Shown here: positions 1-54,839 of the stretch, piece after piece
How positions within the stretch are numbered: the stretch's first letter is position 1
How the letters are laid out: each line of letters opens with the position of its first letter
Source: Acidobacteriota bacterium
GTDB taxonomy: Bacteria > Acidobacteriota > Thermoanaerobaculia > UBA5066 > Gp7-AA6
Direction of reading: 5' to 3'
Assembly (NCBI GenBank): GCA_020199905.1
Contig: JAIVJS010000075.1
Span: 4,521-68,520, forward strand
DNA length: 64,000 nucleotides
Made by a program: the position numbers and the translations under genes
Notes under the pieces: generated by a model
Told to the model about the DNA's origin: nothing
The model's database searches: none
The model's input: the letters and a program-made list of their open reading frames with translations, nothing else

Positions 1-225
1 TACTCCTATGCCGCGCCGGAGCCCAAAGGCTTTCGAGATCTTCCGGTCCGCCCGGCCGCGGCCCGCTTCGACAAGACGCTCGGCGAGTACCTGCTCCCCT
101 ACGAGGCCGTCGCGGCCGCGCCGGAGCCCGAGGCCGACGCCCTGGCTTTTTTTCAATCCACGTACGATGCCGCCGCTCAAACCGGCCGCTGGGACCGCCC
201 GAGCCTCGAACGCGGAAGATCCTGA
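1..225 (+). CDS. C-terminal fragment of a hypothetical protein (5' truncated by window edge)
   Basis: Frame 1 is open from the window start to TGA at 223-225. Translation YSYAAPEPKGFRDLPV...YEAVAAAPEPEADALAFFQSTYDAAAQTGRWDRPSLERGRS has protein-like, non-repetitive composition. No family recognised. Confidence 0.3.
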   Translation, partial: YSYAAPEPKGFRDLPVRPAAARFDKTLGEYLLPYEAVAAAPEPEADALAFFQSTYDAAAQTGRWDRPSLERGRS

Positions 226-247
226 CCGGGAGACTTCTTGGCCTTTT

Positions 248-325
248 CTCGACTCTCGACTCTGAACTCTCAACTTTCTTCTTGAGCGCTCATCGCATAA
301 CGCTCAGCGCTCAACTCTTTTCTTC
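248..325. repeat. Heptamer-periodic intergenic element with GAGCGCTC/AGCGCT palindromes
   Basis: TCGACTCTCGACTCTGAACTCTCAACTTTCTTCTTGAGCGCTCATCGCATAACGCTCAGCGCTCAACTCTTTTCTTC. Lies upstream of the first BNR gene. Confidence 0.5.
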
Positions 326-334
326 GGAGGCCAC

Positions 335-3300
335 GTGATCGGAACGCGCCGCGCCGCCGCGGGACTCATCGCCCTCGCCTGCATCGCCGCCTCGGCTTCG
401 GCGGCGGCTCCGCCGGATCCGCGACTCTTCTCCGAAATGCGTTGGCGGTGCATCGGCCCGTTCCGCGGGGGGCGGACCGTCGGCGCCGCGGGGATTCCCT
501 CGCAGCCGAACGTCTTCTTCATGGGTGTCAACAACGGCGGTGTCTGGAAGACCACCGACGCCGGGCGCACGTGGGCACCGATCTTCGACGATCAGCCGAC
601 CCAGTCGATCGGCGCCATCGCTCTGGCTCCGTCGAACCCCGACATCCTCTACGTCGGGAGCGGCGAGGGGCTCCAGCGGCCGGACCTCTCGACGGGCGAC
701 GGAATCTACAAATCGACCGATGGCGGGAAAAGCTGGATGCATCTCGGCCTCGAGGACGGGCAGCAGATCGGGGCCCTCCTCGTCGATCCCGGGAATCCCA
801 ACCGGGTCTTCGCCGCCGTTCTCGGCCATCCTTACGGGCCCAATCCGGAGCGCGGGGTCTTCCGGTCGACGGACGGCGGGCAGAGCTGGGAAAAGGTGCT
901 CTACAGGGACGAGAACACCGGCGCGATCGCGCTCGCGTTCGACCCGAAGAATCCGCAGGTGGTGTACGCGGACCTTTGGGCGGCCCGGCAGGCGCCCTGG
1001 GAAATCGGCGCCTCGTTCCAGGGGCCGGGAAGCGGGCTCTACAAGTCGACGGACGGCGGAACGACCTGGAAGCCGCTGACGGCCGGTCTCCCGACGCTCG
1101 CGGAGGGCCTCGGCCGCATCGGCATCGCCGTCGCACCGTCGGATCCGTCGCGGCTGTATGCCCAGGTCGACGCCGACGCCGCGCACGGCGGGACGTATCG
1201 GTCCGACGACGCGGGCGCCACGTGGCGGCGCGTCAACGCGGAGAACCGGATCTGGGGGCGTGGAGGAGACTTCGCCGAAATCAAGGTCGACCCGAAGAAT
1301 CCCGACGTCGTCTACGCGGCGAATACGTCCACGTACCGCTCCACCGACGGCGGCCGCACCTTCACGGCGATCAAGGGCGCGCCGGGAGGCGACGACTACC
1401 ACACGATCTGGATCAACCCCGACCACCCCGAGATCATCTTTCTCGCCGCCGACCAGGGCGCGACGATCTCGGTCAACGGGGGAAAGACGTGGAGCTCCTG
1501 GTACAACCAGCCGACGGCCCAGTTCTACCATGTGATCACGGACAACCAGTTTCCGTACCGCGTCTACGGCGGGCAGCAGGAGAGCGGTTCGGCGGGGGTC
1601 TCGAGCCGGAGCGACGACGGGTCGATCCACTTCGGAGACTTCCACCCGGTCGGCGTCGAGGAATACGGCTATGTCGCGCCGGATCCGCTGAACCCCGACA
1701 TCATCTTCGGCGGGAAGATCAGCCGCCACGACATGCGCACGGGCGACACCACCGACATCTCGCCGGCGCCCATCCGGGGCCAGTACCGCTTCGTTCGGAC
1801 CATGCCGGTGCTCTTCTCCCCTCTCGATCCCCACCTTCTCTATCTCGGCGCCAACGTTCTCTTCGCCACGCGCGACGGCGGCAACAGCTGGAGCGTTCTT
1901 TCGCCCGACCTGACGCGCGCCGCCTGGGAAATGCCCGCGAGCGTCGGCGTCTTCGCCCCGATGGATCCGGAGAAGGGGAAGCATCGCGGCGTGATCTACA
2001 CGATCGCGCCGTCCCCCAGGGAAGCCGGCCGGATCTGGGTCGGAACCGACGACGGGCTGATCCATGTGACGACGGACGGCGGTAAGACCTGGAAGGACGT
2101 CACGCCGAAGGCGCTGACGCCGTGGAGCAAGGTCTCCCTGATGGAGGCGTCTCACTCGGATCCCGCCGTGGCGTACGCCGCAATCAACCGCTTCCGACTC
2201 GATGACCTGCGCCCCCACATATACCGGACGCGCGACGGCGGCGCGACCTGGACGGAAATCGTCCGCGGGATCCCCGGCAACGAGGTGGTGAACGCCGTCC
2301 GCGAAGATCCGGAGCGCCGCGGGCTCCTCTTTGCCGGCACGGAGCGGGGCGTGTACGTCTCTTTTGACGACGGGGACGAATGGCGGTCCGTCCGGAACAA
2401 TCTCCCGGCGACCTCGGTCCGCGACCTCGTCGTGCATGGCGACGACCTGGTCGTCGGAACGCACGGGCGCTCCTTCTGGATCCTCGACGACATCACGCCT
2501 CTCCGCCAGATGGCGGCAGAGGCCGTCGCCGCGGAGGTCCATCTCTTCCGTCCGCAGGTGGCGACACGCGTCAAGCGGAGTCAATGGCCCGACACTCCCC
2601 TGCCCCCGGAGGAGCCGGCGGGTCAGAACCCTCCCGACGGGGCCATCGTGAACTACGTCCTGAAGTCGAAGCCGGCGCAGCCGGTCGTGCTCGAGATCCT
2701 CGACCCGGCGGGAAAGCTCGTCCGCCGCTTCACGAGCGCGGACCGTCCCGAGCCCGTGGATCCCGAGTTGAACGTCCCGACCTACTGGATCCGCCGCCCC
2801 GCGGTCCTCTCCGCCGAGCCCGGGATGCACCGGTTCGTGTGGGATCTGCACTATCCGCCTCCCGACGTGCTCGAGCACGAATACCCCATCTCGGCCGTGC
2901 CGGGCGACACGCCGCGGCATCCGGTCGGGCCGGCGGTTCTCCCCGGAACTTACACGGTCCGGCTGACGGCGAACGGGCGCGCCGTCACCGCCCCTCTCAC
3001 CGTGCGCATGGATCCTCGCGTGAAGACGCCGCCGGAGGGTCTCGCGCAGCGGTTCCGGCTGGCGACGGAAATCTCGGCCGCACTGTCACGCGACTCCGGG
3101 GCGCTCACGGAAGTGAAGGCGGCGCGGGCCAGGTTGAAGCCCGCCGCAGAAGCCGGCGCCCGAAAGGGATCTCCTTCGTCGTACGAGGCGGACCTGCTCG
3201 CCCTCGAAGGCTCGGGCGGAGGCCGCCGCGGCGCGAACCGGGACGATCTCTCAGGCCTGAACGGAAAGCTGGCCAGCCTCTACGCGGTCGTCGAAGGCTC

Positions 3301-3415
3301 GGAGACGTCCCCGACGACGCAGGCCGTGGCGGCGTGGAAGGAGCTGTCGGACTCGCTGGAGAAGACGCTGGCGCGCTGGGCCGAGGTGAAGAAGTCGGCA
3401 GGCGGGAGGCGGTAG
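335..3415 (+). CDS. Secreted sortilin/VPS10-like BNR (Asp-box) repeat beta-propeller protein (glycosyl hydrolase BNR / Ycf48-like family)
   Basis: 1026-aa ORF with GTG start preceded by GGAGG. N-terminal signal peptide MIGTRRAAAGLIALACIAASASAAAP. Many S-x-D-x-G-x-T-W Asp-box motifs (STDGGKSW, STDGGQSW, STDGGTTW, SDDAGATW, STDGGRTF, TRDGGNSW, TTDGGKTW, TRDGGATW). Paralog of 17136-20282. Confidence 0.8.
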   Translation: MIGTRRAAAGLIALACIAASASAAAPPDPRLFSEMRWRCIGPFRGGRTVGAAGIPSQPNVFFMGVNNGGVWKTTDAGRTWAPIFDDQPTQSIGAIALAPSNPDILYVGSGEGLQRPDLSTGDGIYKSTDGGKSWMHLGLEDGQQIGALLVDPGNPNRVFAAVLGHPYGPNPERGVFRSTDGGQSWEKVLYRDENTGAIALAFDPKNPQVVYADLWAARQAPWEIGASFQGPGSGLYKSTDGGTTWKPLTAGLPTLAEGLGRIGIAVAPSDPSRLYAQVDADAAHGGTYRSDDAGATWRRVNAENRIWGRGGDFAEIKVDPKNPDVVYAANTSTYRSTDGGRTFTAIKGAPGGDDYHTIWINPDHPEIIFLAADQGATISVNGGKTWSSWYNQPTAQFYHVITDNQFPYRVYGGQQESGSAGVSSRSDDGSIHFGDFHPVGVEEYGYVAPDPLNPDIIFGGKISRHDMRTGDTTDISPAPIRGQYRFVRTMPVLFSPLDPHLLYLGANVLFATRDGGNSWSVLSPDLTRAAWEMPASVGVFAPMDPEKGKHRGVIYTIAPSPREAGRIWVGTDDGLIHVTTDGGKTWKDVTPKALTPWSKVSLMEASHSDPAVAYAAINRFRLDDLRPHIYRTRDGGATWTEIVRGIPGNEVVNAVREDPERRGLLFAGTERGVYVSFDDGDEWRSVRNNLPATSVRDLVVHGDDLVVGTHGRSFWILDDITPLRQMAAEAVAAEVHLFRPQVATRVKRSQWPDTPLPPEEPAGQNPPDGAIVNYVLKSKPAQPVVLEILDPAGKLVRRFTSADRPEPVDPELNVPTYWIRRPAVLSAEPGMHRFVWDLHYPPPDVLEHEYPISAVPGDTPRHPVGPAVLPGTYTVRLTANGRAVTAPLTVRMDPRVKTPPEGLAQRFRLATEISAALSRDSGALTEVKAARARLKPAAEAGARKGSPSSYEADLLALEGSGGGRRGANRDDLSGLNGKLASLYAVVEGSETSPTTQAVAAWKELSDSLEKTLARWAEVKKSAGGRR

Positions 3416-3499
3416 GCGGGAGGCGGACGAAAGCCGGGAATCGGAAATCGGGACTCGAACGACGGAAATTGAAGAGGGGCCCGCCTCCCGCCTACCGCC
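3408..3499. terminator. Long perfect inverted repeat (19-bp GC-rich stem, ~54-nt loop) between convergent genes; candidate bidirectional terminator
   Basis: GGCGGTAGGCGGGAGGCGG at 3408-3426 is the exact reverse complement of CCGCCTCCCGCCTACCGCC at 3481-3499. The left arm overlaps the stop codon of the BNR gene. No U-tract, as is common in high-GC genomes. Confidence 0.35.
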
Positions 3500-3503
3500 C
3501 CGT

Positions 3504-3869
3504 CTAATATGGCATCTCCTCGTCCGACAGCCCCAGGACGTGCCCGATTTCGTGGACGACCGTGTCGCGGATCTCCCGGATCGCTTCTCCCTTCGAGCGG
3601 CAGGTCCGGAGGATCGGGCCCCGGAAGATCGCGATCTGGCCCGGCAAGTGCGAGACCGCGGACTGGCGGTCGAAGACGTCCATGCCGCGGAAGATGCCGA
3701 AGAGCTCGTCGTCGTCCGCGGTGTCGGTCTCCTCGTAGTCTTCGACGGCGGGCTCCTCTTCGACGACGACCACGACGTTCTCGATGTACCGGGCAAATGC
3801 GGGAGGGACCTGAGCCAGCGCTTCCTCGACGCAGGCGTCGAATTCGTCGGGAGAAAGGCGTGGCCTCAC
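3504..3869 (-). CDS. Zincin-like metallopeptidase family protein (DUF1025-like, HExxH)
   Basis: 121-aa ORF with HEIGHVLGLSDEEM motif near the C-terminus and an acidic central stretch, typical of small predicted Zn-metallopeptidases. Start overlaps the tatD stop by 4 nt. Confidence 0.6.
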   Translation of the reverse strand: MRPRLSPDEFDACVEEALAQVPPAFARYIENVVVVVEEEPAVEDYEETDTADDDELFGIFRGMDVFDRQSAVSHLPGQIAIFRGPILRTCRSKGEAIREIRDTVVHEIGHVLGLSDEEMPY

Positions 3870-4657
3870 GGGAGAAAGAGCGCGTCGAAATTCGAGGTGG
3901 TGGCGGAGGCCACCGCGGCGAGGTCCGTGCTCTGAGCCGCGGCCAGCGCCTTCGCGGTCTCGACGACGAACGCGGGCTCCCCGGGTTTCCCGCGATGCGG
4001 CACCGGCGCCAGAAAAGGCGTGTCAGTCTCGATCAGGAGGGCGTCGAGGGGCAGACCCGCCGCCGCGGCCCGGATGTTCTCCGCGGCGCGAAACGTGATC
4101 ATCCCCGAGAACGAAATCCTGTAGCCGAGGTCGATCGCCTTTCGGCCGTATTCCGCCGTCTCCGTGAACGAGTGATGAACCCCGGGCCGCTCGCGCGGTG
4201 GCTGGCGCGAAAGAAGCGCGTACATCTCGCCGCCGCTCTCCCGGTTGTGCAGGATGGCGGGCTTTCCGAGGCGGCGGGCGAGGTCCAGCATCCATTCGAG
4301 GACGGCGATTTGAATTTTTCGAGGGGAGAGGTCGTAGTGGAAGTCGAGGCCGACCTCGCCGATCGCGGCGGCCTTCGGGTCGCGGGCGAGCGCCTCGAGA
4401 AGCGGCCCATCCCGGTCAACGTCGAAGTCCTTCGCTTCGTGCGGATGGACGCCCACCGCCGCGACGACGTCTGAGTGACGACGCGCGATCGCGAGCGCCG
4501 CCTCGGAATCGGCCAGAGTCGTCCCGGGGACCAGAAAGCGCCCGACGCCGGCCGCGCGCGCCCGCGCGAGCAGCACGTCCGTAACGGCGGAGACGCCGTC
4601 CCGTCCCTCGAGCTGCAGGTGGCAATGCGAATCGGCCAGCACGAGACGGTCGCTCAC
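3866..4657 (-). CDS. tatD: TatD family hydrolase (metal-dependent DNase)
   Basis: DSHCHL motif near the N-terminus, plus further His/Asp-containing segments consistent with TatD. The listed ORF extends to 4696, but that N-terminal extension (SSQSRVESRETR) is a translation of the heptamer repeat. The likely true start is GTG at 4655-4657 (VSDRLVLADSHCHL). Confidence 0.75.
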   Translation of the reverse strand: MSDRLVLADSHCHLQLEGRDGVSAVTDVLLARARAAGVGRFLVPGTTLADSEAALAIARRHSDVVAAVGVHPHEAKDFDVDRDGPLLEALARDPKAAAIGEVGLDFHYDLSPRKIQIAVLEWMLDLARRLGKPAILHNRESGGEMYALLSRQPPRERPGVHHSFTETAEYGRKAIDLGYRISFSGMITFRAAENIRAAAAGLPLDALLIETDTPFLAPVPHRGKPGEPAFVVETAKALAAAQSTDLAAVASATTSNFDALFLP

Positions 4658-4666
4658 GCGGGTCTC

Positions 4667-4728
4667 CCTTGACTCAACTCGAGACTGAGAACTCAAGACT
4701 GAAAGCTGAGATCTGACAGCTGACAGCT
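4667..4728. repeat. Heptamer-periodic intergenic repeat element (CTGANAN units)
   Basis: TTGACTCAACTCGAGACTGAGAACTCAAGACTGAAAGCTGAGATCTGACAGCTGACAGCTCTAC. Its 7-nt periodicity and AT-richer composition contrast with the flanking CDS. It lies between the metG stop and the tatD start. Confidence 0.6.
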
Positions 4729-6720
4729 CTACTTCACCCGGCTGCCCGGCGGGACGTCGGACGCCACCTCCAGCAGGGACGGCTCTCCCGCCTCCCCCAC
4801 CGTCGCGGCGAGCACCATCCCGTTCGATTCGACCCCCATGAGCTTCGCGGGCTTCAGGTTCGCGACGATCACGACGTTGCGGCCGACCAGGGCCTCCGGC
4901 TCGTAGCGGGCGGCGATGCCGGCGACGATCTGCCGCTGCTCGGTCCCGAGATCGACCTGAAGCTTCATCAGCTTGTTCGATTTGGGAACCCGCTCGGCCG
5001 TGAGCACCTTTGCGGTGACGAGCCTGACCTTCTGGAACTCCTCGATTCCGATCCGGGCATCGGAGGTCGCGGGCGAGACGGCCTGGGTGGTCTCGACGCG
5101 CGGGGCCTCCGGCGTGGCGGCCGGAGCGGGGACGGAAGCGGCGGGAGGAGGGGTCGGTTTATCTTCCATGGGACTCTGCTCTCCTTTCAGATACGCGGCG
5201 ATGTCGGCGCGGGGGAAGAGGGCCGGCGACTCGGGAAGGGGCGCGCCCAGGACGAGGCCGCCCCAGCGGAGGTCGTGCTCGTCCGGGTCGCGCGGAGGAA
5301 GACCCAGGGTCTCGAAGATCTTCCGGGACGTCGCCGGAAGAAACGGCGAGAGGAGGACGGCCGCGAGCCGCACGCCCTCGGCCGCTCCGTAGAGGATCCT
5401 CTGAAGCCTGTCGGACGCGCCCTCCTCCTTCCGGATCTTCCAGGGCTCCCGGCTGACCACGTAGCCGTTGATCTGCGAGAGGAGCTTCCAGACCGCTTCG
5501 AGCGCGCGGTGGAACGCGAGCTCCTCCATCGCCTCCCGCCACTCCTTGCGGAGCGGCCGGTACGCGGTGTGGATCTCGTTGACGCCGCAGGGCACGGTGG
5601 GCGCAGACCCGAACGACTGCCGGCAGAGAGCGGCGACCCTCGAAACGGTGTTCCCGAGGTCGTTGGCGAGGTCCGCGTTGTACCGCACGAGGAAGGCCTC
5701 GTCGGAAAAGCTCGCGTCCTGTCCGAAGGCCATCTCGCGCAGGAGGAAATAGCGCACCGCGTCGGGGCCGAAGGTCGCGGCGAGCTCATCGGGGCGCACG
5801 ATGCCGCCCACCGACTTCGAGATCTTCTTCCCATCCCGCAGCCACCATCCATGCGCCCACACCGTCGTCGGAAGAGGAAGCCCGGCGGACAGCAGGAACG
5901 CCGGCCAGTAGACGGCGTGAAACCTCAGGATGTCCTTGCCGATCAGGTGGACGCGGCGGGATTCCGGATCGACCCAGAACTCCCGGTAGAGCCGGTCGTC
6001 CTCCGCTCCGAAACCGAGCGCGGTGATGTAGTTCGCCAGCGCGTCCAGCCACACGTAGACGACGTGCCCGGGATGGTTCGGAAACGGGATGCCCCACTGA
6101 AGCTTCGTGCGCGAGACCGAGAGGTCGTTCAATCCTCCGCGGATGAAGGACACGACCTCCGCGCGCCGCGTCTCGGGCCGGATGAACCCGGGGTGCGCTT
6201 CGATGTGGCGCAGGAGAGGCTCCGCGTACTTCGAAAGGCGGAAGAAGACGTTCTCCTCCGACTCCCAGGTGCAGACCGTGCCGTGGATGGGACATCGTTT
6301 CTCGGAGTCGAGCTCCTTCTCCGTGTAGAAGATCTCGCAGCCCGAGCAGTACCACCCTTCATGCCGCGCGGTGTAGAAGTCGCCCGCCGCTTCGATCTTC
6401 GAGATCAGGGCCGTGACGCCCTGCCGGTGCCGGGGCTCGGTCGTGCGAATGAAGTCGTCGTTCGCGATGTCGTACATCTTCCAGAGCTCTCCGTAGCGCG
6501 CCACCACCCGGTCCGCGAGCTCGATCGGGCGAAGGTTCTGCTCCGCGGCCGCCTTTTCGATCTTCTGCCCGTGCTCGTCGGTCCCGGTCAGAAAGCGCGT
6601 CGGGTCGCCGATCAGCCGGTGGAACCGCGTCAGGGCATCGCCGACGACGGTCGAATAGATGTGCCCGATGTGGGGCAGATCGTTGACGTAGTAGATCGGC
6701 GTGGTGGCGTAGAAGCGCAC
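4729..6720 (-). CDS. metG: Methionine--tRNA ligase with C-terminal tRNA-binding (EMAP/Trbp111-like) domain
   Basis: 663 aa. N-terminus MRFYATTPIYYVNDLPHIGHIYSTVVGDAL carries the class I HIGH motif. KISKS-type motif KKISKSVGG. Zinc knuckle CSGCEIF...CPIHG. C-terminal anticodon-binding-like tail (VTAKVLTAERVPKSNKLMKLQVDLGTEQRQIVAGI). Confidence 0.95.
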   Translation of the reverse strand: MRFYATTPIYYVNDLPHIGHIYSTVVGDALTRFHRLIGDPTRFLTGTDEHGQKIEKAAAEQNLRPIELADRVVARYGELWKMYDIANDDFIRTTEPRHRQGVTALISKIEAAGDFYTARHEGWYCSGCEIFYTEKELDSEKRCPIHGTVCTWESEENVFFRLSKYAEPLLRHIEAHPGFIRPETRRAEVVSFIRGGLNDLSVSRTKLQWGIPFPNHPGHVVYVWLDALANYITALGFGAEDDRLYREFWVDPESRRVHLIGKDILRFHAVYWPAFLLSAGLPLPTTVWAHGWWLRDGKKISKSVGGIVRPDELAATFGPDAVRYFLLREMAFGQDASFSDEAFLVRYNADLANDLGNTVSRVAALCRQSFGSAPTVPCGVNEIHTAYRPLRKEWREAMEELAFHRALEAVWKLLSQINGYVVSREPWKIRKEEGASDRLQRILYGAAEGVRLAAVLLSPFLPATSRKIFETLGLPPRDPDEHDLRWGGLVLGAPLPESPALFPRADIAAYLKGEQSPMEDKPTPPPAASVPAPAATPEAPRVETTQAVSPATSDARIGIEEFQKVRLVTAKVLTAERVPKSNKLMKLQVDLGTEQRQIVAGIAARYEPEALVGRNVVIVANLKPAKLMGVESNGMVLAATVGEAGEPSLLEVASDVPPGSRVK

Positions 6721-6735
6721 GGCTGGTTGCTGGGG

Positions 6736-6852
6736 GTTAAGCGTTGAGCGTTAAGCGTTGAGCGTCGAAGAGCCCCGGAACGAGACGCTCAACATACACC
6801 GAGTCGCGTCGACAGATCGACGCTCAACGCTCGTCGCTCGACGCTCAACTCT
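6736..6852. repeat. Heptamer-periodic palindromic intergenic element (GTTRAGC / GACGCTC units)
   Basis: Left arm GTTAAGCGTTGAGCGTTAAGCGTTGAGCGTCGAAG. Right arm GACGCTCAACGCTCGTCGCTCGACGCTCAACTC is its imperfect reverse complement, ~45 nt away. 7-nt phasing throughout. Lies between the metG start and the radC stop. Confidence 0.6.
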
Positions 6853-6853
6853 C

Positions 6854-7564
6854 TTACAGCAATCCTGCCTCGCGGAACGAGATGCAGCCGGAACGGCCGA
6901 CGACGATGTGATCGAGCAGCCGGACGCCGACCGACTCGGCGGCGGTTGCCAGCCGGCGGGTGAACTCGCGGTCTTCCCGCGATGGGGAGGGATCTCCCGA
7001 CGGATGGTTGTGGTACAGGATCACCCCCGCCGCGTTGGCCAGCAGGGCGCGCTTCAAGATCTCGCGCGGTTCGACGACGGCGCGATCGAGCGTGCCCCGG
7101 TAGATGTCCGGATCGTCTTTCAGGAGCCGGTTCCTCGCGTTGACGAACAGCGCGCCGGTCCGCTCCTGCGCGCCGTCTCCGCGGGCCCGGCGGAGATACT
7201 CCTTGACGAGATTCGGCTCGTGAAACAGGTCGCGCGGCGCGATCGCCTCGGTCGAAAGGCGCCGGCCGAGCTCGAGCGAGGCTTCGATGACCGCGGCGCG
7301 CGCGCCCTTGATCCCGCGCTCGCGGCGCAGCTCGGCGCCCGACATTCCGGCGAGCGCCACCAGGCCGCCATGATCGGCGAGGAGACTCCGGGCGCGGTCG
7401 AGAGCGTTCTCGCCGCGGGTGCCGGACCCGAGCAGCAGGGAGAGGAGCTCCTCGTTCGAAAGAGCGGCGGCGCCCACGCGCGCGAGACGCTCTCTGGGAC
7501 GCTCGTCGCAGGGAAGATCGCGGATTCGGAGAACAGGGCGTCGGGGAGACGTGATTTCGGTCAT
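6854..7564 (-). CDS. radC: DNA repair protein RadC (JAB/MPN domain)
   Basis: C-terminal JAMM motif GVILYHNHPSGDPSPSREDREFTRRLATAAESVGVRLLDHIVVG. N-terminal HhH-like segment SNEELLSLLLGSGTRGENAL. The long ORF starts at 7678, but a start at MTEITSP (7564) matches normal RadC length. Confidence 0.8.
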   Translation of the reverse strand: MTEITSPRRPVLRIRDLPCDERPRERLARVGAAALSNEELLSLLLGSGTRGENALDRARSLLADHGGLVALAGMSGAELRRERGIKGARAAVIEASLELGRRLSTEAIAPRDLFHEPNLVKEYLRRARGDGAQERTGALFVNARNRLLKDDPDIYRGTLDRAVVEPREILKRALLANAAGVILYHNHPSGDPSPSREDREFTRRLATAAESVGVRLLDHIVVGRSGCISFREAGLL

Positions 7565-7676
7565 GGCGTGCGGTCGGAGAGCCCGCGCTCGCCCGGTGAG
7601 GAGGAGGCGATCATGGCACGGATCTGGCGAAAGGCGAAGGGAGGACGGAAGGGCGGGACAGCAGGAGGGCGTGACC

Positions 7677-7886
7677 ATGCAGTTTCCGATCCGAGGCTTG
7701 CTGATGGCGGCGGGCGTGCTGCTGGTCGCCGCGGCCGTGCTGTGGCCGGTCCTCTCCCGCTATGTCGGGCGCCTGCCCGGCGACTTGCTGGTGCGCCGGG
7801 GTAGCTGGACGTTCGCCTTCCCTCTCGTCACCTGCCTGCTGCTGTCGCTGCTGTTCTCTCTCGCCCTCTGGCTCTTTCGGAGATGA
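7677..7886 (+). CDS. DUF2905 family small membrane protein
   Basis: MQFPIRGLLMAAGVLLVAAAVLWPVLSRYVGRLPGDLLVRRGSWTFAFPLVTCLLLSLLFSLALWLFRR. Two hydrophobic helices and the conserved LPGD...RRG...F.FP motif. Upstream ORF sequence is low-complexity. Confidence 0.6.
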   Translation: MQFPIRGLLMAAGVLLVAAAVLWPVLSRYVGRLPGDLLVRRGSWTFAFPLVTCLLLSLLFSLALWLFRR

Positions 7887-8997
7887 GGCGCCGGTAGAGG
7901 GCCTCGACCCGGTCGAGTCGCACTTCGGAGGAGAAACCGGCCTCGACCCGCGCGCGGGCACTCCGTCCCAGCGAGGCCGCCAGCGCCGGGTCCGCCAGGA
8001 GGCGCCGGACCGCCGCCGCCATCGCCGGCGGATCTCGCGGGGGGACGAGCAGGCCGGACTCGCCGTCGACGACGAGCTCGGGATTTCCCCCGGCGGCGCT
8101 CCCGAGCACCGGCTTGCCGAGCGCCATGGCCTCGCGCAGCGTCCCCGTCACTCCAAGCCCTTCGTATGAGAGGTCGGCCACCATGTCCGCGGCCGCCAGC
8201 ACGTCGGGCATGTCGGACCGGAAACCGATCGGCCGCACCCGGTCTTCGACGCCCTGCGCGCGGGCAAACGCGAGGACGTCGGCCTTCTTCGCCTCGTCCT
8301 CACACGCCACGATCGCCGTGCGCAACCGGGGAAACTCCGGCGCGAGGAGAGCGGTCGCGGACACCAGGTCTCTCCAGCCTTTCCACTCCCGCGCGCCGAC
8401 CTGGACCAGCAGCGTGTCGCCCGGCGAGACGCCCCACTCGCGGCGGACTCTCGCCCCGTCCGTCTTGCCGGGATCGAACACCGAGAGGTCCACGCCGGCG
8501 TAGATCACGTGGACGATTCCGGGCGCGAGCCGGCCCGACTTCACGATGACACGTTTAATGTCCTCGCAGACCGTGACGACCGCGTCCATCCGAACGTGGA
8601 ACTTGATCCGATTGAAGACGTCGAGAGGGAACGAGACCCCGCGATTCACGACCAGCACGGGCCGGCGGCGCGAGAAGAGAGTCGAGAAGAGCGCGATCGA
8701 GTGGGCGATTCCCTTGTGCACGTGGATGACGTCCACCTCCCGCTCGTCGACCAGAGCCGCGAGCTTCCGCGCGCTCGCGAAGTCGAACTCGTGCTTCAAC
8801 GGAAGGGCGTGAAAGTCCAGCCCCTCCGCTCGCGCCTTTCCCGGAACTTCGCCGGCGTCGCGGGTCACGATCGCGACGCGGTGCCCGCGGCGCGAGAGAC
8901 CCCGCGCCAGCTGGAACATCTGCACGACGCTTCCCGTGGAGAACAGACCCTTCTCGAGGATCTGGAGAATCGAAAGGGGCGGAGCGGCGGGCGGCAT
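7828..8997 (-). CDS. Glycosyltransferase family 4 (GT-B, glycosyl transferase group 1)
   Basis: N-terminal ILQILEKGLFSTGSVVQMFQLARGLSRRGHRVAIVTR (GT4 N-domain). C-terminal EGLGVTGTLREAMALGKPVLGSAAGGNPELV (E-x7-E region). Start could also be 9036. Confidence 0.8.
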   Translation of the reverse strand: MPPAAPPLSILQILEKGLFSTGSVVQMFQLARGLSRRGHRVAIVTRDAGEVPGKARAEGLDFHALPLKHEFDFASARKLAALVDEREVDVIHVHKGIAHSIALFSTLFSRRRPVLVVNRGVSFPLDVFNRIKFHVRMDAVVTVCEDIKRVIVKSGRLAPGIVHVIYAGVDLSVFDPGKTDGARVRREWGVSPGDTLLVQVGAREWKGWRDLVSATALLAPEFPRLRTAIVACEDEAKKADVLAFARAQGVEDRVRPIGFRSDMPDVLAAADMVADLSYEGLGVTGTLREAMALGKPVLGSAAGGNPELVVDGESGLLVPPRDPPAMAAAVRRLLADPALAASLGRSARARVEAGFSSEVRLDRVEALYRRLISERARGRERTAATAAGR

Positions 8998-8998
8998 C

Positions 8999-10033
8999 TC
9001 AGGAGGAGGGATCGGGCACGAGAACGATCTTTCCATGCTGACGACCCTCTTCCAGGCGCTGGTACGCCTCGGCCGCGCGGGAGAACGGAAACACCTGGTC
9101 GAGCCGCGGCGTGAGGCGGCCCGCGGAGACCGCCGAGAGCAGCGCGCGGAACTCGCGGTCGTTCGCCATCGTGGACCCGAGGATGGAGAGCTGCTTCCAG
9201 AAGATCAGGCGGATCTCCTCCTTCGGGTTGGGACCCGACGTCGCTCCGCACGTGACGATCCGCCCGGCCTTCGAAGCCGCCTGAAGCGAGGTCATCCACG
9301 TGGCCTCGCCCACGCAATCGACCACGACGTCGACGCCGCGCTTGCCGGTGCGGGCGCGCACCTCCTTGCCGACGTCGGATTTCTTATAGTCCAGCACGAC
9401 CTCGGCGCCCGAACCCGCGACCTGCCGCATCTTCTCGGCGCCGGACGTCGTCGCCCAGACGCGCCCGCCGCAGAGAAGGGAGATCTCGATGGCGGCGCCG
9501 GCCACGCCCCCGCCCGCCCCGTGGACGAGGACGATCTCGCCGGGGCGGACCGCGGCGCGCGTGACGATCATCCGCCACGCCGTCTGATAGACCAGCGGGA
9601 ACGCCGACGCCTGCTCGAACGAGAGTTTGTCCGGGATCGGGAAGAGGTTGCGCGCGGGAACGACGACTTTTTCGGCGAAAGTGCCGGCGAGATGCTCGCC
9701 CAGGATCCGGTACTTCACGCAGACGCTCTGCTCGCCGGCGCGGCAGAACTCGCAGGCGCCGCAGGAGAGACCCGGCTGGATCAGCACGCGGTCTCCGGGA
9801 TGGAAGCCTTCCACTCCCGGCCCGGCGAGATCGACGGTGCCGGCTCCGTCGGCTCCCGGCACCTGCGGCAGTGGCACATGCGGAATGCCGTTTCGCACGA
9901 AGAGGTCCAGGCGATTCAATGCCGCGGCCCGGATCGCCACCCGAACCTCTCCCGGCCCGGGCTCCGGCTCCTCCCGGTCGCCGTACCGGAGAACCTCGTG
10001 GCCGCCGTGCTGGACGAAATAGACGGCTTTCAT
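8999..10033 (-). CDS. Zn-dependent alcohol dehydrogenase / quinone oxidoreductase (MDR superfamily)
   Basis: 344 aa starting MKAVYFVQHGGHEVL. Catalytic zinc-site-like GLSCGACEFCRAGEQSVC. NAD(P)-binding GxGxxG LVHGAGGGVAGAAIEI. C-terminal GKIVLVP typical of MDR. Confidence 0.85.
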   Translation of the reverse strand: MKAVYFVQHGGHEVLRYGDREEPEPGPGEVRVAIRAAALNRLDLFVRNGIPHVPLPQVPGADGAGTVDLAGPGVEGFHPGDRVLIQPGLSCGACEFCRAGEQSVCVKYRILGEHLAGTFAEKVVVPARNLFPIPDKLSFEQASAFPLVYQTAWRMIVTRAAVRPGEIVLVHGAGGGVAGAAIEISLLCGGRVWATTSGAEKMRQVAGSGAEVVLDYKKSDVGKEVRARTGKRGVDVVVDCVGEATWMTSLQAASKAGRIVTCGATSGPNPKEEIRLIFWKQLSILGSTMANDREFRALLSAVSAGRLTPRLDQVFPFSRAAEAYQRLEEGRQHGKIVLVPDPSS

Positions 10034-10049
10034 GCCGGTATCGTAAGCG

Positions 10050-10162
10050 GGTTGAGCGTTAAGCGTAGGGAAGAAGCGCGGACCTCGGCTCTCCGTATCT
10101 ATTCCTCGTCTTCTTAGAAAACGTTCAACGCTCGACGCTCGACGCTCAATCGACCTCAATTC
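10050..10162. repeat. Heptamer-periodic palindromic intergenic element (GTTGAGC / ACGCTCG units)
   Basis: GGTTGAGCGTTAAGCGTAGGG ... AACGTTCAACGCTCGACGCTCGACGCTCAATCGACCTCAATTCAG. Arms are mutually reverse-complementary with 7-nt phasing. Lies between the ADH start and the phosphatase-family gene stop. Confidence 0.6.
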
Positions 10163-11751
10163 AGATACCCCAGCGCCTTGAGCCTCCTCAGGTACTCCCG
10201 ATCCGTCGTGACGCTCGATCCGGCCGCGGGAGCGATCCTCGCGCCGTAGGTCGCGACGGTCGCTTTCTCGAGCGAGCCCTCCCGGAAGAGGGCCGGAACG
10301 GCGCGGCCCCGCAGATCCTCCGCGGCGGGAATGCCCGCTCGCGCGAGGACGGAGGATGCCACGTCGGCGGCTTCGATGCGCACGAGCGCGGAGGAGCGGC
10401 CGTCGAACACGGTCGCCCGGGCGAGCGACCCCGCCGAAGCGTGGCTGTCTGCCGTCAGCACGACCAGGACGCTCTCTCCCGCGCGGGCGATCCGGATTTC
10501 CGCGGCGAGAAACCGCCCGATGCGCTCGAGCTCGGCGCCGCGGCGCGCCGGGTCGCGCCGCAGGATGTCGGGGCCGGGCAGATAGAGCGCGGCAATCGCC
10601 GCTCCGCGCAGGGCCGGCCAGCGCTCGAGCGCGACCGCGTCCGCCTCCTCGCCGGTCCGGGCGAGAGAAAGAACGTGCCGGTTGTCGACCACGACCGCTC
10701 CGGGCCACGGGCCGGAAGCCCACCAGCCGATCGCTCCCGACGGAAGCCCGGCCGATGCGGCGACTTCCCAGAACGCCAGCGCGCGCCGGTCGGCGGCGGA
10801 CACGGGAGCGCTCGAGACGAGCGACAGCGCGGGGCCGACGACGCGAAGGTACCAGCGGCTCCCGACCGGGGCGCGCAAAGCGGCCGGAGACCCCGCCGGG
10901 CGGACACGCTCGAGAGCGCGCACGCCATGACGAACGGCGTCGACGCCCGTCGCCACGGTCGTCCAGAGCTCCGGAGGAGCGCCCGGCTCCTGACGCCACC
11001 ACCCGGCCGGCGCTCCCTCGAGGAGACCGGCGAGAGCCGGCTCCCCGACCGCCCCGGCGGCCCCTCCCGCCACGCCGTCGATCGCCACGACCACGACGCG
11101 CTCCCGGCGAGGCGCCACGTGGAGACGAGGGGAGACGACGCCTTCCGGGCGCGACGCGAAGACGGCGGCGGCAATGACGAGCCCCGCGGCGGCGATCCCG
11201 AAGAGGGTCCCGTGGCGCCGCGCGCGCGGCAGCACGCCCGAGTGGGCGTAGGCGCGCGCGAGGTAGGCGGCGCGGGCGCTCCGCGCGGCTCCGAGAGCGG
11301 CGACCGCGACCGGAAACCCCCAGAGGAGAGCGGATCCGCGCAGGGCGCGTCCGAGACTCCAGGCGCCTCCGATCCAGAGAAGGAAGACCGCCGCCGCCGC
11401 CAGAAGGCCGCACGCCGCGGCGCCCGGGCCCGCGGCGCGGGACCGGTCCGCGACCGCCGCGCCGGCTGCGGCCGCCAGCGCCGCCGGAAGAAAGAAAGCG
11501 GCCGAGAGGTGCAGCAGCAGCACGAGGGGTCCCGATCCGGACCGGAGAAACTCGGGCTCCGCCGATAGGACGGCCGCCACGCATCCCACCGCGCACGCCG
11601 CCGCCAGGGCGACGGCGACGGGAGCAAGAATCCCTCGCCGCCCCTCGAACACCCGGCTGAAGACGTACCGCTCGACACGGCCGTCCAGGTACCCGAGATC
11701 GCGGAGCTTGTGGCGCGCCTCCTCCAGTTCGAGCGGGTGCCCGCCCGTCAC
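10156..11751 (-). CDS. Alkaline phosphatase/sulfatase-superfamily membrane protein (polytopic N-domain + periplasmic metalloenzyme domain)
   Basis: GTG start overlapping the polyprenyl synthase stop (GTGA). Several N-terminal TM helices (VAVALAAACAVGCVAAVL, LLLHLSAAFFLPAALAAAA, LLAAAAVFLLWIGGAW). Then VVVVAIDGVAGG, typical of the AP-superfamily catalytic start. LGYL motif at both ends (HKLRDLGYLDG, LRRLKALGYLN). Family assignment from general similarity only. The upstream part of the 671-aa ORF is the out-of-frame polyprenyl synthase region. Confidence 0.5.
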   Translation of the reverse strand: MTGGHPLELEEARHKLRDLGYLDGRVERYVFSRVFEGRRGILAPVAVALAAACAVGCVAAVLSAEPEFLRSGSGPLVLLLHLSAAFFLPAALAAAAGAAVADRSRAAGPGAAACGLLAAAAVFLLWIGGAWSLGRALRGSALLWGFPVAVAALGAARSARAAYLARAYAHSGVLPRARRHGTLFGIAAAGLVIAAAVFASRPEGVVSPRLHVAPRRERVVVVAIDGVAGGAAGAVGEPALAGLLEGAPAGWWRQEPGAPPELWTTVATGVDAVRHGVRALERVRPAGSPAALRAPVGSRWYLRVVGPALSLVSSAPVSAADRRALAFWEVAASAGLPSGAIGWWASGPWPGAVVVDNRHVLSLARTGEEADAVALERWPALRGAAIAALYLPGPDILRRDPARRGAELERIGRFLAAEIRIARAGESVLVVLTADSHASAGSLARATVFDGRSSALVRIEAADVASSVLARAGIPAAEDLRGRAVPALFREGSLEKATVATYGARIAPAAGSSVTTDREYLRRLKALGYLN

Positions 11752-12602
11752 GACCGGCGATCCCGCACCACGCGCGCGAGATCCGCGAGCACCGCGGCGC
11801 GGGACCGGAAGGACGACAGCGCGGACACGGCGGCGTCCAGGAGCTCGTCCACCAGGCTGCGGGCGGCGTCCGCTCCGAAGAGAGTGGCGAAGTTGGCCCG
11901 GTGGCCGTCGCGCAGCGTGTCCTTGCCCATGATCTCCGGGCTTCCCTCGAGGTCGAGCAAATCGTCGGTGATCTGAAACGCGAGCCCGAGGTTGCGTGCG
12001 AACACGGTCAGCAGATCGAGGTCCGAGTCGGGAGCCCCGCCGGCGATCGCTCCGCCGCGGACGGCCGCCACGAAGAGGGCGCCGGTCTTGCGCGCGTGGA
12101 TGCTCTCGAGCTCTTCCAGAGTCAGACGGGCCGGATCCGCCGACAGGTCCGCGGCCTGCCCGCCGCAGCACCCGTCGGCTCCGACGGCCTTCGAAAGCTC
12201 GGAGACCAGCCGGGCGCGTCCTCCCGCGGGGACCTCGGGGGCGGACGCGAGGGTTTCGAACGCGCGGCTCAACAGGGCGACCGACGCGAGCTCGGCGGTC
12301 GAGACCCCGTACGTCACGTGGAGGGCGGGCCGGCCGCGGCGCCGCCGGGCGTCGTCCATCGACGGCAGGTCGTCTAAGACGAGAGAGGCCGCGTGAACGA
12401 GCTCGACCGCGACGGCGACCGGCATGACCGCGCGCCGCGGAGCGCGGGCTACCGATCCGGCGGCCAGCGCCACGAGCGGCCGGAGTCTCTTCCCGGGAGA
12501 GAGCGCCGCCTCGAACATCGCGCGCGGGAGCGCCGCACCCGCGGGCGTCCCCTCCGGGACGGCGCGGGCGAGGGCCTCCTCGACAGCCGGCCGCGCCTCC
12601 AC
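11748..12602 (-). CDS. Polyprenyl diphosphate synthase (geranylgeranyl/farnesyl diphosphate synthase family)
   Basis: First and second Asp-rich motifs LVLDDLPSMDD and FQITDDLLD. KxGxLF region HARKTGALF. Length 284 aa. Confidence 0.85.
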   Translation of the reverse strand: MEARPAVEEALARAVPEGTPAGAALPRAMFEAALSPGKRLRPLVALAAGSVARAPRRAVMPVAVAVELVHAASLVLDDLPSMDDARRRRGRPALHVTYGVSTAELASVALLSRAFETLASAPEVPAGGRARLVSELSKAVGADGCCGGQAADLSADPARLTLEELESIHARKTGALFVAAVRGGAIAGGAPDSDLDLLTVFARNLGLAFQITDDLLDLEGSPEIMGKDTLRDGHRANFATLFGADAARSLVDELLDAAVSALSSFRSRAAVLADLARVVRDRRS

Positions 12603-12663
12603 GGCAAAGCGGTCGAAGGCGAATGCGAAGGCGTTCCCGCCTGTCGAGGAGTCGCGCGCCTGC

Positions 12664-13008
12664 TTAACCGGCGAAGCTTCCCACCGCCTCCTCCTCCGAT
12701 TCGTAGACGTCGAACACCGTGATGAGCTGAGTCACCGTGAGAACGTCGTTGATCTTCGGCGGGAGATGCAGGAGCCTCAACTTGCCGCCCTTGTTGGTGA
12801 CGGACGTGTAGCAGCCGACGAGCTCGCCGATCCCGGACGAGTCGATCGTCGTCACATCCTGCATGTTGATGAGGATGTTCTTCTTGCCCTCGTCCACCAG
12901 CTTGTTGATCGTCTCGCGCAGCTGCACGTCGCCCGACCCGATGGTGATCTTGCCTTTGAGGTCGAGGATCTGCACCCCGCCCCGACCCTCTCGCACGCTC
13001 GTTTTCAT
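12664..13008 (-). CDS. STAS-domain anti-sigma-factor antagonist (SpoIIAA/RsbV-like)
   Basis: 114 aa. IDSSGIGELVG with the conserved phosphorylatable Ser region. Overlaps the upstream RsbW-like gene by 4 nt. Confidence 0.8.
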   Translation of the reverse strand: MKTSVREGRGGVQILDLKGKITIGSGDVQLRETINKLVDEGKKNILINMQDVTTIDSSGIGELVGCYTSVTNKGGKLRLLHLPPKINDVLTVTQLITVFDVYESEEEAVGSFAG

Positions 13009-13472
13009 GATCCCTTTTCCTCCTTCTCCTTCCCCCCCGCCAGATTCTTGGTCAGAAACAACTCCATTCCGCCCCCCTCCGCCCTCTGGAAGCGGACTTC
13101 ATCCATGAACGTTTTCATGTAGAAGATGCCGCGTCCAGACGTCTTGAACCGATTTTCGGGCGCCAGCGGGTCCTCGACCTTCTCGGGGTCGAACCCTTCG
13201 CCCTCGTCCCGGACGTGAATCCGCAGGATCCGCGCCGTCACGTCCATCTCGAGGTGGACACGTTTCGCCCGGTCCTGGCCGTTGCCGTGCTTGATCGCGT
13301 TCGCCAGCGCCTCTCGCAGGGCCATCAGAATCCAGTGGCGCGTCTCATCCGAGAGGTTTTCCGGGTCCAGGAGCTTTCCACAGAGGTGCTGAGCCATTTC
13401 GATGTTTTCGAAACGGCTCGACAGAGACATCCGGACCGGGCCGGTCGCGCTGGAGGAGCTTGAAGAACTCAT
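13005..13472 (-). CDS. Anti-sigma regulatory factor, Ser/Thr protein kinase (RsbW/SpoIIAB-like GHKL ATPase)
   Basis: EALANAIKHGN (N-box), DEGEGFD (G1) and GRGIFYMKTFMDEV (G2) motifs. 155 aa. Confidence 0.8.
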   Translation of the reverse strand: MSSSSSSSATGPVRMSLSSRFENIEMAQHLCGKLLDPENLSDETRHWILMALREALANAIKHGNGQDRAKRVHLEMDVTARILRIHVRDEGEGFDPEKVEDPLAPENRFKTSGRGIFYMKTFMDEVRFQRAEGGGMELFLTKNLAGGKEKEEKGS

Positions 13473-13571
13473 TCACTTCGTTCGATAGGGGTTAAAAGCC
13501 CGGCGGATCTTAGCCGAAAGGGTCTGCATAAAGATAGCAGCGGGTCCGAAGGCGCCTGTTACCCTCAGTCC

Positions 13572-14810: not shown

Positions 14811-14865
14811 AAACTGAGAACTGATGACTGACGACTAACTCCCCATCTGACTCAAACTCATCGGT
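14742..14865. repeat. Heptamer-periodic repeat element (CGGGAAA then AACTGAN units) spanning the ends of two convergent genes
   Basis: CCGGGAAACGGGAAAACGGGAAATGGGAAACG ... GGGAACTGAAAACTGAGAACTGATGACTGACGACTAACTCCCCATCTGACTCAAACTCATC. It supplies the stop codon and C-terminal tail of the HExxH protein and the last codons of the CPBP protease. Confidence 0.55.
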
Positions 14866-15692: not shown

Positions 15693-15726
15693 CGACCTCG
15701 TCGATCCCCCGGCTTTCGACTAAGTT

Positions 15727-16806: not shown

Positions 16807-17135
16807 GCGTCAGGAGGCAGACGGGAATGGACCACGCCGCATTTTCATCAGCCGAGCGCAGTGCGCCGAAGTCTTGTAAACGTCGCCGTCGCGCGGGGAC
16901 GGACGAAGGAGGGCGCCCGTGAGCGATTCCTCGGTCGGAAAAGCGATCGATCGCGTGCCGGCGAGGAAAAAGTCTCCGGCGCGCGGCGCGCCGGGGCGGC
17001 ATTTGCCCGTTCCCGCGGCTCAACGCTCATCGGGCCTCCACTTCTGGATTCCACGCGGCGCGAGCCCCGAAGTCTGGCGGTCCTCCAGCTTCCGGCGCGC
17101 TCGGATAACATCCGCGCTTCCAAACAGGAGGCCGC

Positions 17136-20282: not shown

Positions 20283-20288
20283 GCGACG

Positions 20289-34527: not shown

Positions 34528-34628
34528 CTGTCGGTTCGAAGCGGAAGGGCAGGCGGAACAGTGACGCCCTTCGCCATTCGCCGTTCGCTTCCAGCGCCCG
34601 GCGCCTGCACCTCGACACCGCCTGATCG

Positions 34629-54760: not shown

Positions 54761-54839
<79 letters not shown>

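Follow-up and report, generated by a model that had tools for sequence, protein, structure and literature searches.

In many large bacterial genomes, tandem heptamers surpass all other long simple repeats in over-representation, and published work assigns them no known role (PMC4692102, PMC4679880). According to the accounts of his work in PMC4679880 and PMC4692102, Mrazek (2007) observed that among long simple repeats, heptanucleotides are the most abundant in many large genomes, and proposed polymerase slippage as their source. Here, we describe arrays of tandem heptamers at gene boundaries in a 64,000-nt stretch of DNA from a soil bacterium of the Acidobacteriota, class Thermoanaerobaculia, a placement that named MetRS homologs support (GCA_020199905.1, contig JAIVJS010000075.1, positions 4,521 to 68,520), referred to as the window, with particular attention to the spacer between radC and metG (6736-6852). 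In kind, these arrays are degenerate heptanucleotide simple-sequence repeats of 3 to 8 units, a class that is already known. The novelty lies in the lineage, in how often arms are paired, and in the evidence that the arms evolve in concert while their unit sequence is free.

The GGGNATC repeats of Xanthomonas and Nostoc, described by Rehm et al. (2015), reside in non-coding DNA with a preference for four units, lie at most 50 nt from open reading frame (ORF) ends, and seldom occur between divergent ORFs. They occupy the same sites in relatives, where their length and sequence vary, and have no known function (PMC4692102). MacGregor (2015) reported TAACTGA direct repeats upstream of start codons in marine Beggiatoaceae, cyanobacteria, and Bacteroidetes, comprising 169 direct sets and one indirect set (PMC4679880). 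In Geobacter metallireducens, Aklujkar et al. (2009) noted intergenic opposite-strand pairs of three to five tandem units of 7 to 9 nt (GTTGCTYN, TCTCCGTS, and MTYCTGA; also GGGACCG x4), for example in the proB-proA spacer, and guessed, with no test, that they are binding sites of a global regulator, IHF/HU (PMC2700814). The arrays of the window display the features of the heptanucleotide repeats termed LSSR 5-11 by Mrazek (2007) or, in cyanobacteria, STRR, namely, an excess of period 7, a bias toward non-coding DNA, and copy-number variation between relatives. A full-text literature search for GTTGAGCGTTGAGC-type strings retrieved no description of tandem GTTGAGC arrays.

Our preferred explanation, on which our confidence is evenly balanced, is that the arrays are born by slippage and that those with a partner serve as stem-loops in transcripts, at the borders of genes. 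Our best guess for this role places it either between cistrons or where transcripts end.

Period-7 arrays and their inverted pairing

Period-7 runs were scored in a 21-nt sliding window requiring at least 17 matches of s[i] versus s[i+p]. Lag 7 gives 10 runs in the window and lag 14, the double unit, gives 4, compared to 0-1 for every other lag between 4 and 15. When the window is simulated as a first-order Markov chain, there are on average 0.12 and at most 1 period-7 runs. Eight of the 10 runs are located in the ~11% of the window outside GC3-based gene calls, from which the coding/non-coding split was taken, and Tandem Repeats Finder reports period 7 at every array locus. A first-pass annotation of the window, made from the letters alone, had listed eight loci of intergenic, recurrent, phased heptamers. 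All eight hold, and three further arrays exist; the loci it had missed are 3396-3499, with GGNAGGC arms and an inner CGGRAAT array, and 34565-34588, with GCCNTTC units. The annotation had recognized only two complementary pairs of units, whereas at least five unit types occur (GTTRAGC/GAGCG-type, ACTGA/CAGTT-type, GGNAGGC, CGGGAAW, and GCCNTTC). Its description of the elements as AT-richer is correct on average (54.6% GC versus 68.4% for the whole window) but not for the GGNAGGC-type arms at 3396-3427 and 3480-3499, which have 81-85% GC. Units of the GAGCG type are found at the unlinked loci 284-318, 6736-6853, 10050-10160, and 20289-20325, and units of the CTGA/CAGTT type at 4667-4728, 14805-14840, 58435-58503, and 63198-63234. 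Both families are also present in the closest relatives, L120 and L121 (L-numbers are locus labels), and remoter relatives use other units.

The frequency of pairing was determined in a clade set of 360 kb, in which the window is joined by seven syntenic loci and by metagenomic metG loci after removal of duplicates. This set contains 49 strong period-7 arrays of 36 unit classes, compared to 0-13 arrays for periods 5, 6, and 8-12. With a partner defined as a reverse-complement match of at least 16/21 no more than 150 nt away, 22 of the 49 arrays (45%) are paired, versus a single one among 328 control segments. Pairing is seen for 4-30% of the arrays in the cross-phylum and IMG/VR sets (14-30% in four of five sets) and for 0-2% of the controls; among the matches listed, 26 of 126 GTTRAGC arrays across phyla have a partner. 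Paired arms in the clade are spaced by 10-60 nt, and their minimum free energy stems comprise 24-48 pairs. In the window, the reverse-complement arms proposed in the first-pass annotation were found around a spacer at 6736-6853, 10050-10160, and 58435-58503, and additionally at 3396-3499, and the other loci are solitary or mixed.

Folding of the radC-metG spacer (6721-6856) gives -64 kcal/mol and a z-score of -5.1 relative to shuffled sequences. The locus at 58434-58512 reaches -33.4 kcal/mol (z -6.6, 39% of the ensemble), with a stem of 24 bp and a loop of 8 nt. Seven of eight folded hairpins from the radC-metG and metG-tatD spacers of relatives give z-scores of -4.1 to -8.4, with a different heptamer in every case (GGATTTT, GATTGAA, GTGAATT, GAGAATT, GGACTGA, GTCTCAG, and TAACTGA); the eighth, L367 (CGGAATG/CCGAAAT), gives -2.1. 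In L349 (2168-2253), the second arm and its flank are duplicated, with GGTCAATCGTCAATCGACAATCTTCAAT present twice, 48 nt apart, so that one left arm faces two alternative right arms.

Inverted arms superficially resemble terminal inverted repeats, and the arrays are extragenic, as are REPs. Even so, a mobile element family (MITE or REP/BIME) or an assembly or adaptor artifact is scarcely credible as an explanation, and the MITE and artifact variants are refuted. No two spacers have more than 8 consecutive nt in common on either strand, arms differ by locus, orthologous sites carry different arms, and no conserved palindromic unit is common to the copies. Spacers that share no sequence mean that the loci do not represent copies of a single element, contrary to the MITE-like class suggested in the first-pass annotation; its REP/BIME-like alternative fails for want of a shared palindromic unit. 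An independent NCBI assembly of the same organism, GCA_020200255.1 (contig JAIVJB010000120.1, L001), is 99.93% identical over window positions 1554-9720 and contains the arrays 4667-4728 and 6736-6852 unchanged, with unaltered copy number. Nor are the elements confined to the window; relatives and many phyla have related arrays, and isolate genomes have similar ones. CRISPR was rejected, as it had been in the annotation, since the units are contiguous and 7 nt long, without ~24-48-nt repeats and unique spacers. The accompanying statement that the elements are not a simple microsatellite has to be withdrawn: they are degenerate heptanucleotide simple-sequence repeats of a kind known from other phyla (PMC4692102, PMC4679880, PMC2700814). 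A Pfam scan of ten proteins from the first 22.6 kb detected no transposase, and no search was aimed at RAYT.

Evolution of the arms in the radC-metG spacer

Positions 6736-6852 represent the entire spacer from the radC stop to the metG start. On the sense strand, the metG-proximal arm (6736-6768) reads GCTYAAC x4 and ends 15 nt short of the GTG at 6720, and the radC-proximal arm (6813-6853) begins 4 nt past the TAA at 6854-6856. The window shares the arms GTTGAGC/GCTCAAC with L121 and L120, whereas this site carries ACTGAGG/CCTCAGT in L123, L341, and L402, GTCRGGN/NCCYGAC in L125, GTCTCAG/CTGAGAC in L351, and a single arm in L126.

This replacement of units bears on the idea of protein-binding heptad arrays, in which a nucleoid-associated or ribbon-helix-helix-type protein would read 7-bp units in both orientations. 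The omega repressor binds WATCACW heptads, both direct and inverted. Recurrence of GAGCG-type and CTGA-type units at unlinked loci, also in L120 and L121, would suit such a reader, as would the promoter-like core bracketed by the arms at radC-metG, the equal fold energies of sense and antisense strands, and the Geobacter precedent of paired 7-9-nt tandem units (PMC2700814). However, unrelated heptamers replace the units at one and the same site with the arms still complementary, so that the reader would have to change each time. Considering further that one genome holds several unrelated families and that no candidate protein was identified, we regard protein binding as improbable.

An RNAalifold consensus for five radC-metG orthologs contains 37 pairs. 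In the covariation analysis, 84% of the cells are paired versus 74±1.8% after shuffling and 32-42% with the partners slid, and compensatory change is found in 19 pairs versus 9±2, a level reached by 0 of 500 shuffles; it counts against our explanation that this test comprises five related sequences, with the structure taken from the same alignment, and that repeats allow register freedom. The two arms also expand together, with 8+8 units in L341 and 4+5 in L402, whose flanks are 93% identical, and the metG-proximal arm has four units in the window and five in L121. The identity of the radC-metG spacer to that of the window is 0.84 in L121 and 0.68 in L120, compared to 0.64 and 0.48 at the four-fold degenerate sites of metG, where saturation lies at ~0.41. 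Conservation of the spacer above synonymous sites at this one locus is supportive of the stem-loop explanation, with the proviso that repeats align easily.

The loop between the arms harbors CGGTGTATGTTGAGCGTC (6784-6801), which is kept in relatives and has the look of a promoter's extended -10 element. Among 71 relatives, many have a -10-like motif 10-20 nt ahead of the metG start, and this distance suggests that the metG leader is very short. Motifs upstream of metG in L339-L418 include GGTATCTT, TGTATGTT, TACAAT, TAGACT, and TAGGAT, often with TG in front. In the window, the motif is ~75 nt upstream of the start because the metG-proximal arm intervenes before the GTG. The stem encloses the motif in the window, L121, L125, and L351 and precedes it in L341, L402, and L123. 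Such placement would fit an element that brings the radC message to a close and sets it apart from metG expression.

Copy number thus varies among relatives (L341 versus L402, window versus L121), and arrays lie between the -10-like motif and the start codon or supply stop codons. Both observations would be compatible with phase-variation switches, whose copy number alters promoter-start spacing or C termini and thereby tunes expression. We consider such switches very unlikely, given that the neighbors are the housekeeping genes metG, tatD, and radC, that the units are interrupted, which stabilizes repeats, and that array lengths are equal in the two near-identical assemblies. Published heptamer studies also came to a negative conclusion (PMC4692102).

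Gene setting, origin, and possible action of the arrays

The arrays are listed with their neighboring genes in Table 1. In the window, they are found in 7 of the 17 gaps between co-directional genes, in 2 of the 5 convergent gaps, and in none of the 6 divergent ones (Fisher p 0.07), in line with the bias against divergent gaps reported for GGGNATC repeats (PMC4692102). Among the matches listed, 95 of 126 cross-phylum GTTRAGC arrays are outside rough gene calls, with 44 in co-directional, 15 in convergent, and 10 in divergent contexts. The rule of Rehm et al. that arrays are nearer the 5' neighbor did not reach significance for the cross-phylum GTTRAGC arrays listed (42 versus 27, p 0.09, rough gene calls).

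Table 1. Heptamer arrays of the window and the named genes beside them (coordinates are window positions)
Feature	Position	Strand	Remark
CTCRACT x4-5 (CTCGACT CTCGACT CTGAACT CTCAACT TTCTTCT)	242-283	+	Upstream of BNR/sortilin start GTG 335
GAGCG/CGCTC quasi-palindrome TTGAGCGCTCA...TCAGCGCTCAAC	284-318	+	Local 9-bp hairpin right before GGAGG ribosome-binding site
BNR/sortilin protein gene	335-3415	+	
G-rich arm GGNAGGC x4	3396-3427	+	Reverse-complement partner 18/21
Inner array CGGGAAT CGGAAAT CGGGACT...	3433-3467	+	In loop between two GGNAGGC arms
C-rich arm GCCTNCC x3	3480-3499	+	Reverse complement of 3396-3427
tatD	3866-4657	-	
~8 units CTGTCAG / CTCAGNN type (sense = minus strand)	4667-4728	-	Fills spacer from metG stop to tatD start
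metG	4729-6720	-	
metG-start-proximal arm GTTAAGC GTTGAGC GTTAAGC GTTGAGC GTCGA (plus strand)	6736-6768	-	
Loop/core between arms	6769-6812	-	Contains CGGTGTATGTTGAGCGTC at 6784-6801 (minus strand)
radC-stop-proximal arm GTTGAGC GTCGAGC GACGAGC GTTGAGC GTCGA (sense strand)	6813-6853	-	Pairs with 6736-6768
radC	6854-7477	-	
Zinc alcohol-dehydrogenase family gene	8999-10033	-	
Short arm GTTGAGC GTTAAGC (plus strand)	10050-10070	-	16 nt ahead of alcohol-dehydrogenase-family gene start ATG 10033
Longer arm CGTTCAA CGCTCGA CGCTCGA CGCTCAA (plus strand)	10119-10160	-	Overlaps stop of gene 10156-11751
CGGGAAA x4, four GGG tracts	14742-14772	+	Translated in C-terminal extension of gene 13578-14810
AACTGAA AACTGAG AACTGAT GACTGAC GACTAAC	14805-14840	+	Between convergent genes
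GTTGAGC TTTGAGC GTCAAAC GTTGAGC GTCAAAC (exact 14-nt double unit)	20289-20325	+	7 nt past stop of BNR gene 17136-20282
Weak array GCCCTTC GCCATTC GCCGTTC	34565-34588	+	Between co-directional genes
Arm GTTCTCA GTTGTCA GTTCTCA GTCCTCA GTTC	58435-58467	+	Begins at stop of gene 57312-58436
Arm GAACTGA AAACTGA TGACTGA CAGCT	58475-58503	+	Reverse complement of 58435-58467; ends 6 nt before ATG 58510
GGCTCTC GGCTCTC AGTTATC AGTTCTC	63198-63234	+	After ORF ending at 63198; no partner arm

The array at 242-283 has no partner arm (best reverse-complement score 11/21), and the region 242-337 folds with a z-score of -2.3. At the convergent gene pair downstream, the arm 3480-3499 adjoins the stop of the minus-strand gene 3504-3869, and the outer stem of 14 bp in 3413-3506 reaches a z-score of only -1.0. 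A segment of 175 bp (3475-3649), comprising this C-rich arm and the 3' end of gene 3504-3869, is missing from L001, which may reflect either variation within the population or a discrepancy between assemblies beside a repeat hairpin. L120 has CTGTCAG x3 at the place equivalent to the array 4667-4728. Regarding known RNAs, a tRNA-Asp (GTC) gene on the minus strand (54761-54837) is the sole Rfam or ARAGORN match in the window. Rfam 15 gave nothing else over the whole window at the gathering threshold and nothing in 6650-6900 at E ≤ 1.

Some arrays run into coding sequence. A GGTAGGC unit is the source of the TAG stop (3413-3415) of gene 335-3415. The 26-residue C-terminal tail GGRSRETGKREMGNEGHQRQRSQTGN of gene 13578-14810 is read from the CGGGAAA array and is absent from the L126 ortholog, and the stop of this gene is the first TGA of the AACTGAN array at 14805-14840; tail and array-borne stop imply that arrays reshape gene ends. 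The idea of a three-frame stop cassette, with a TGA or TAA in every unit and 7 mod 3 = 1, was rejected, as stops occur in 17 of 36 unit classes on either strand, with 48% expected.

Several observations speak to where the arrays come from. Spacers that are otherwise compact become longer through arrays: the radC-metG spacer has 42-68 nt where arrays are missing and 105-143 nt where they are present, the one upstream of the dehydrogenase gene measures 122 nt in the window versus 23 nt in L126, and the metG and tatD genes overlap or are separated by 31 nt, up to 64-71 nt. In L358 (1452-1483), L360 (1441-1489), L398 (866-897), and L399, CTGTCGA x4-5 stands directly before the metG ATG. One variant unit in these arrays, CTGTAGA, carries a TAGACT that is the -10-like hexamer of the array-less loci L364 and L378, which argues that the CTGTCGA array was seeded from local sequence; it appears to have been amplified out of the promoter region itself. 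From local seeding, together with a sequence-independent excess of heptamers, we infer that arrays arise by local duplication or slippage. The second arm could result from compensatory slippage under selection or from template switching between arms.

The sequence independence is apparent from the distribution across genomes. GTTRAGC x3 is present in at least 118 stretches of species-representative genomes from more than 10 phyla, with hosts including Verrucomicrobiota, Bacteroidota, Burkholderiales, Acidobacteriota, Gemmatimonadota, Planctomycetota, cyanobacteria, and Campylobacterota; Prevotella koreensis, Limnohabitans, and Caballeronia are examples of isolate genomes with comparable arrays. 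Among the matches listed, GTTRAGC loci contain 253 period-7 runs versus 2-22 for periods 5, 6, and 8-12. In IMG/VR, scrambled heptamers of the same composition form triple repeats in 15 and 7 stretches and GTTRAGC in 13, where by our own estimate chance would give ~0.2. GTTRAGC was therefore dismissed as a conserved cross-phylum element: with scrambles about equally frequent, its spread reflects a general tandem-heptamer excess of any sequence. Another scramble, TTGRCAG (57 IMG/VR stretches), belongs to the CAGTT/ACTGA family and hence is no independent control. This ACTGA/CAGTT core is commoner in IMG/VR, with the 57 TTGRCAG stretches and at least 120 stretches of AACTGAN x3. The listed AACTGAN contigs from IMG/VR (L219-L338) have ~3 strong period-7 arrays each, 353 in all, 25% of them with a reverse-complement partner.

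These data leave room for a neutral by-product, generated by 7-nt-preferring slippage and quasi-palindrome template switching, in which paired arms are functionless. We deem this possible but doubtful. It agrees with the equal frequency of scrambled triples in IMG/VR, with the 36 unit classes among 49 arrays, with the rapid turnover and the missing arrays of L122, L124, and L126, with seeding from local sequence, with arrays that run into coding ends and alter C termini, and with the slippage hypothesis of Mrazek (2007) as relayed in PMC4679880 and PMC4692102. It does not readily explain why the radC-metG spacer is conserved beyond four-fold sites, why sense-strand stems have more G·T than A·C mismatches (see below), why the arrays are imperfect and unchanged in copy number between assemblies that are 99.93% identical, or why 45% of the arrays in the clade are paired and none of six divergent gaps contains one.

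According to our preferred explanation of transcript stem-loops, a 7-mer in a non-coding spacer would be multiplied by local duplication or slippage into an array of ~3-8 units, and a reverse-complement array nearby would allow the whole spacer from a stop to the next start or stop to fold into a long stem-loop. The unit sequence would be free to change as long as complementarity of the arms is kept. Located between cistrons or at 3' ends of the flanking genes' transcript, the stem-loop might stop the upstream message or indicate where it ends, shield it from 3' exonucleases, or offer a site for a double-strand RNase. The downstream promoter or start codon might be insulated, which would amount to REP-like function without REP membership. 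Solitary arrays would probably be raw material or decay products, possibly functionless. A hint comes from mismatches: when 15 stems are read in the sense of their flanking genes, there are 58 G·T versus 29 A·C mismatches (p 0.0025), and 40 versus 22 (p 0.03) without related loci, an excess that selection on an RNA stem predicts. Canonical intrinsic terminators, with a short GC-rich stem and a U-tract, were rejected as an identity of the arrays in positions 1-20000. This region contains four terminator-like hairpins with a T-run, below the 10.5±3.4 of shuffled sequences, and a scan of the same region found no sigma-70 consensus promoter; this lineage may use other signals for transcript ends. 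TTCTTT is found at the end of some relatives' hairpins (L345 and L367).

A number of findings weigh against this explanation. A presence/absence comparison of relatives, as the first-pass annotation had recommended, found no radC-metG array in the close relatives L122 and L124 and one arm in L126, where the 23-nt spacer upstream of the dehydrogenase gene lacks an array as well; absence at the same sites in all three implies that the elements are dispensable. About half of the arrays are solitary, and the stems are imperfect, with ~74% Watson-Crick pairs in self-alignments. Five window loci fold no better than shuffled sequences: z-scores are above 0, and hence without a significant hairpin, at 4658-4731 (0.06), 14735-14870, 20280-20365 (0.4), and 63190-63250 (0.4), and the score of -0.8 at 10034-10158, where the arms 10050-10070 and 10119-10160 pair only loosely, is not significant. 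The long hairpins anticipated in the annotation are borne out at 6721-6856 and 58434-58512 but not at these loci. None of the four intrinsic-terminator-like sites in 1-20000 coincides with an array locus. Template switching between arms could maintain complementarity and co-expansion without selection, and transcription-coupled C-to-T mutation could be an alternative source of the G·T excess. This asymmetry is the only strand evidence that favors RNA, as fold energies are equal for sense and antisense and do not tell the strand of action apart. Finally, the recurrence of two unit families in one genome is explained neither by pure slippage nor by pure structural selection.

Beyond the published work (PMC4692102, PMC4679880), the arrays offer three handles: frequent pairing, replacement of units with complementarity retained, and co-expansion of arms. 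If the stems act in transcripts, gene ends in this lineage would be marked by fast-evolving, self-renewing hairpins, and the prediction of operons, the search for terminators, and the annotation of gene ends in metagenome-assembled genomes would all be affected. For two genes of the window, an array already provides the stop codon or the C-terminal tail. If the arrays are neutral, they would provide a clean natural record of 7-nt slippage and of template switching between arms. In a bolder version, which we consider rather unlikely, "heptad hairpins" would be an expandable cross-phylum gene-boundary device with arms growing and shrinking in step, the stem rather than the sequence under selection, and a 7-nt reader or writer, and STRR, GGGNATC, TAACTGA, and Geobacter sites would be one phenomenon with a single mechanism. 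As part of that speculation, the 7-nt register might stem from the footprint of an arm-copying replisome or repair polymerase or from a double-stranded RNA- or DNA-binding protein with a 7-bp repeat, three units corresponding to two helical turns.

Relation to known repeat systems

REP/BIME elements serve as 3' mRNA stabilizers or terminator-like elements in enterobacteria. They are the best functional analogy to the arrays described here, which are likewise extragenic, prefer co-directional and convergent gaps, and could form transcript stem-loops. Unlike REP/BIME, however, the arrays have no conserved 20-40-nt palindrome and no family-wide sequence, as the heptamers differ per locus.

With STRR and GGGNATC repeats, the arrays share one degenerate position, a typical copy number of ~4, occurrence in large high-GC genomes, a distance of up to ~50 nt from start or stop codons, recurrence at equivalent intergenic sites of relatives in variable length and sequence, and the presence of inverted repeats. 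The GGGNATC unit type itself is represented in the window by CGGGAAT at 3433-3467, a rotation of the Xanthomonas unit GGGAATC (PMC4692102), and by CGGGAAA x4 at 14742-14772. The latter, CGGGAAACGGGAAAACGGGAAATGGGAAA, agrees with the common sequence motif for G-quadruplexes in having four GGG tracts with loops of 4-5 nt, as in the repeats of Xanthomonas and Nostoc, and L123 (3339-3418) has a comparable CGGGAAA run beside CGTGAGG x4. G-tracts are lacking in most window arrays, and G-quadruplexes are therefore no general explanation. The arrays differ from those studied by Rehm et al. in belonging to the phylum Acidobacteriota and in the 45% pairing, covariation, and co-expansion, which these authors did not analyze.

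The AACTGA core in intergenic tandem heptamers recalls the TAACTGA repeats, above all at 58478-58503, directly before a start codon; NAACTGA at 14805-14840 is also close to the TAACTGA unit. In contrast to TAACTGA, the seventh base is variable (A, G, T, C), both orientations occur, often as inverted pairs, and the position relative to ribosome-binding sites is inconsistent. Forward orientation immediately ahead of a start is seen at 58478-58503 alone, and the remaining arrays are reversed, located after stops, or paired.

The paired sites of Geobacter are matched at 6736/6813, 10050/10119, 58435/58475, and 3396/3480, with a similarly variable distance between opposite-strand unit sets and many loci per genome, although the consensus sequences in Geobacter are different ones. 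Whereas the Geobacter sites fall into consensus-defined classes, the arms described here undergo turnover of units with complementarity kept, which points to base pairing rather than to a sequence-specific reader.

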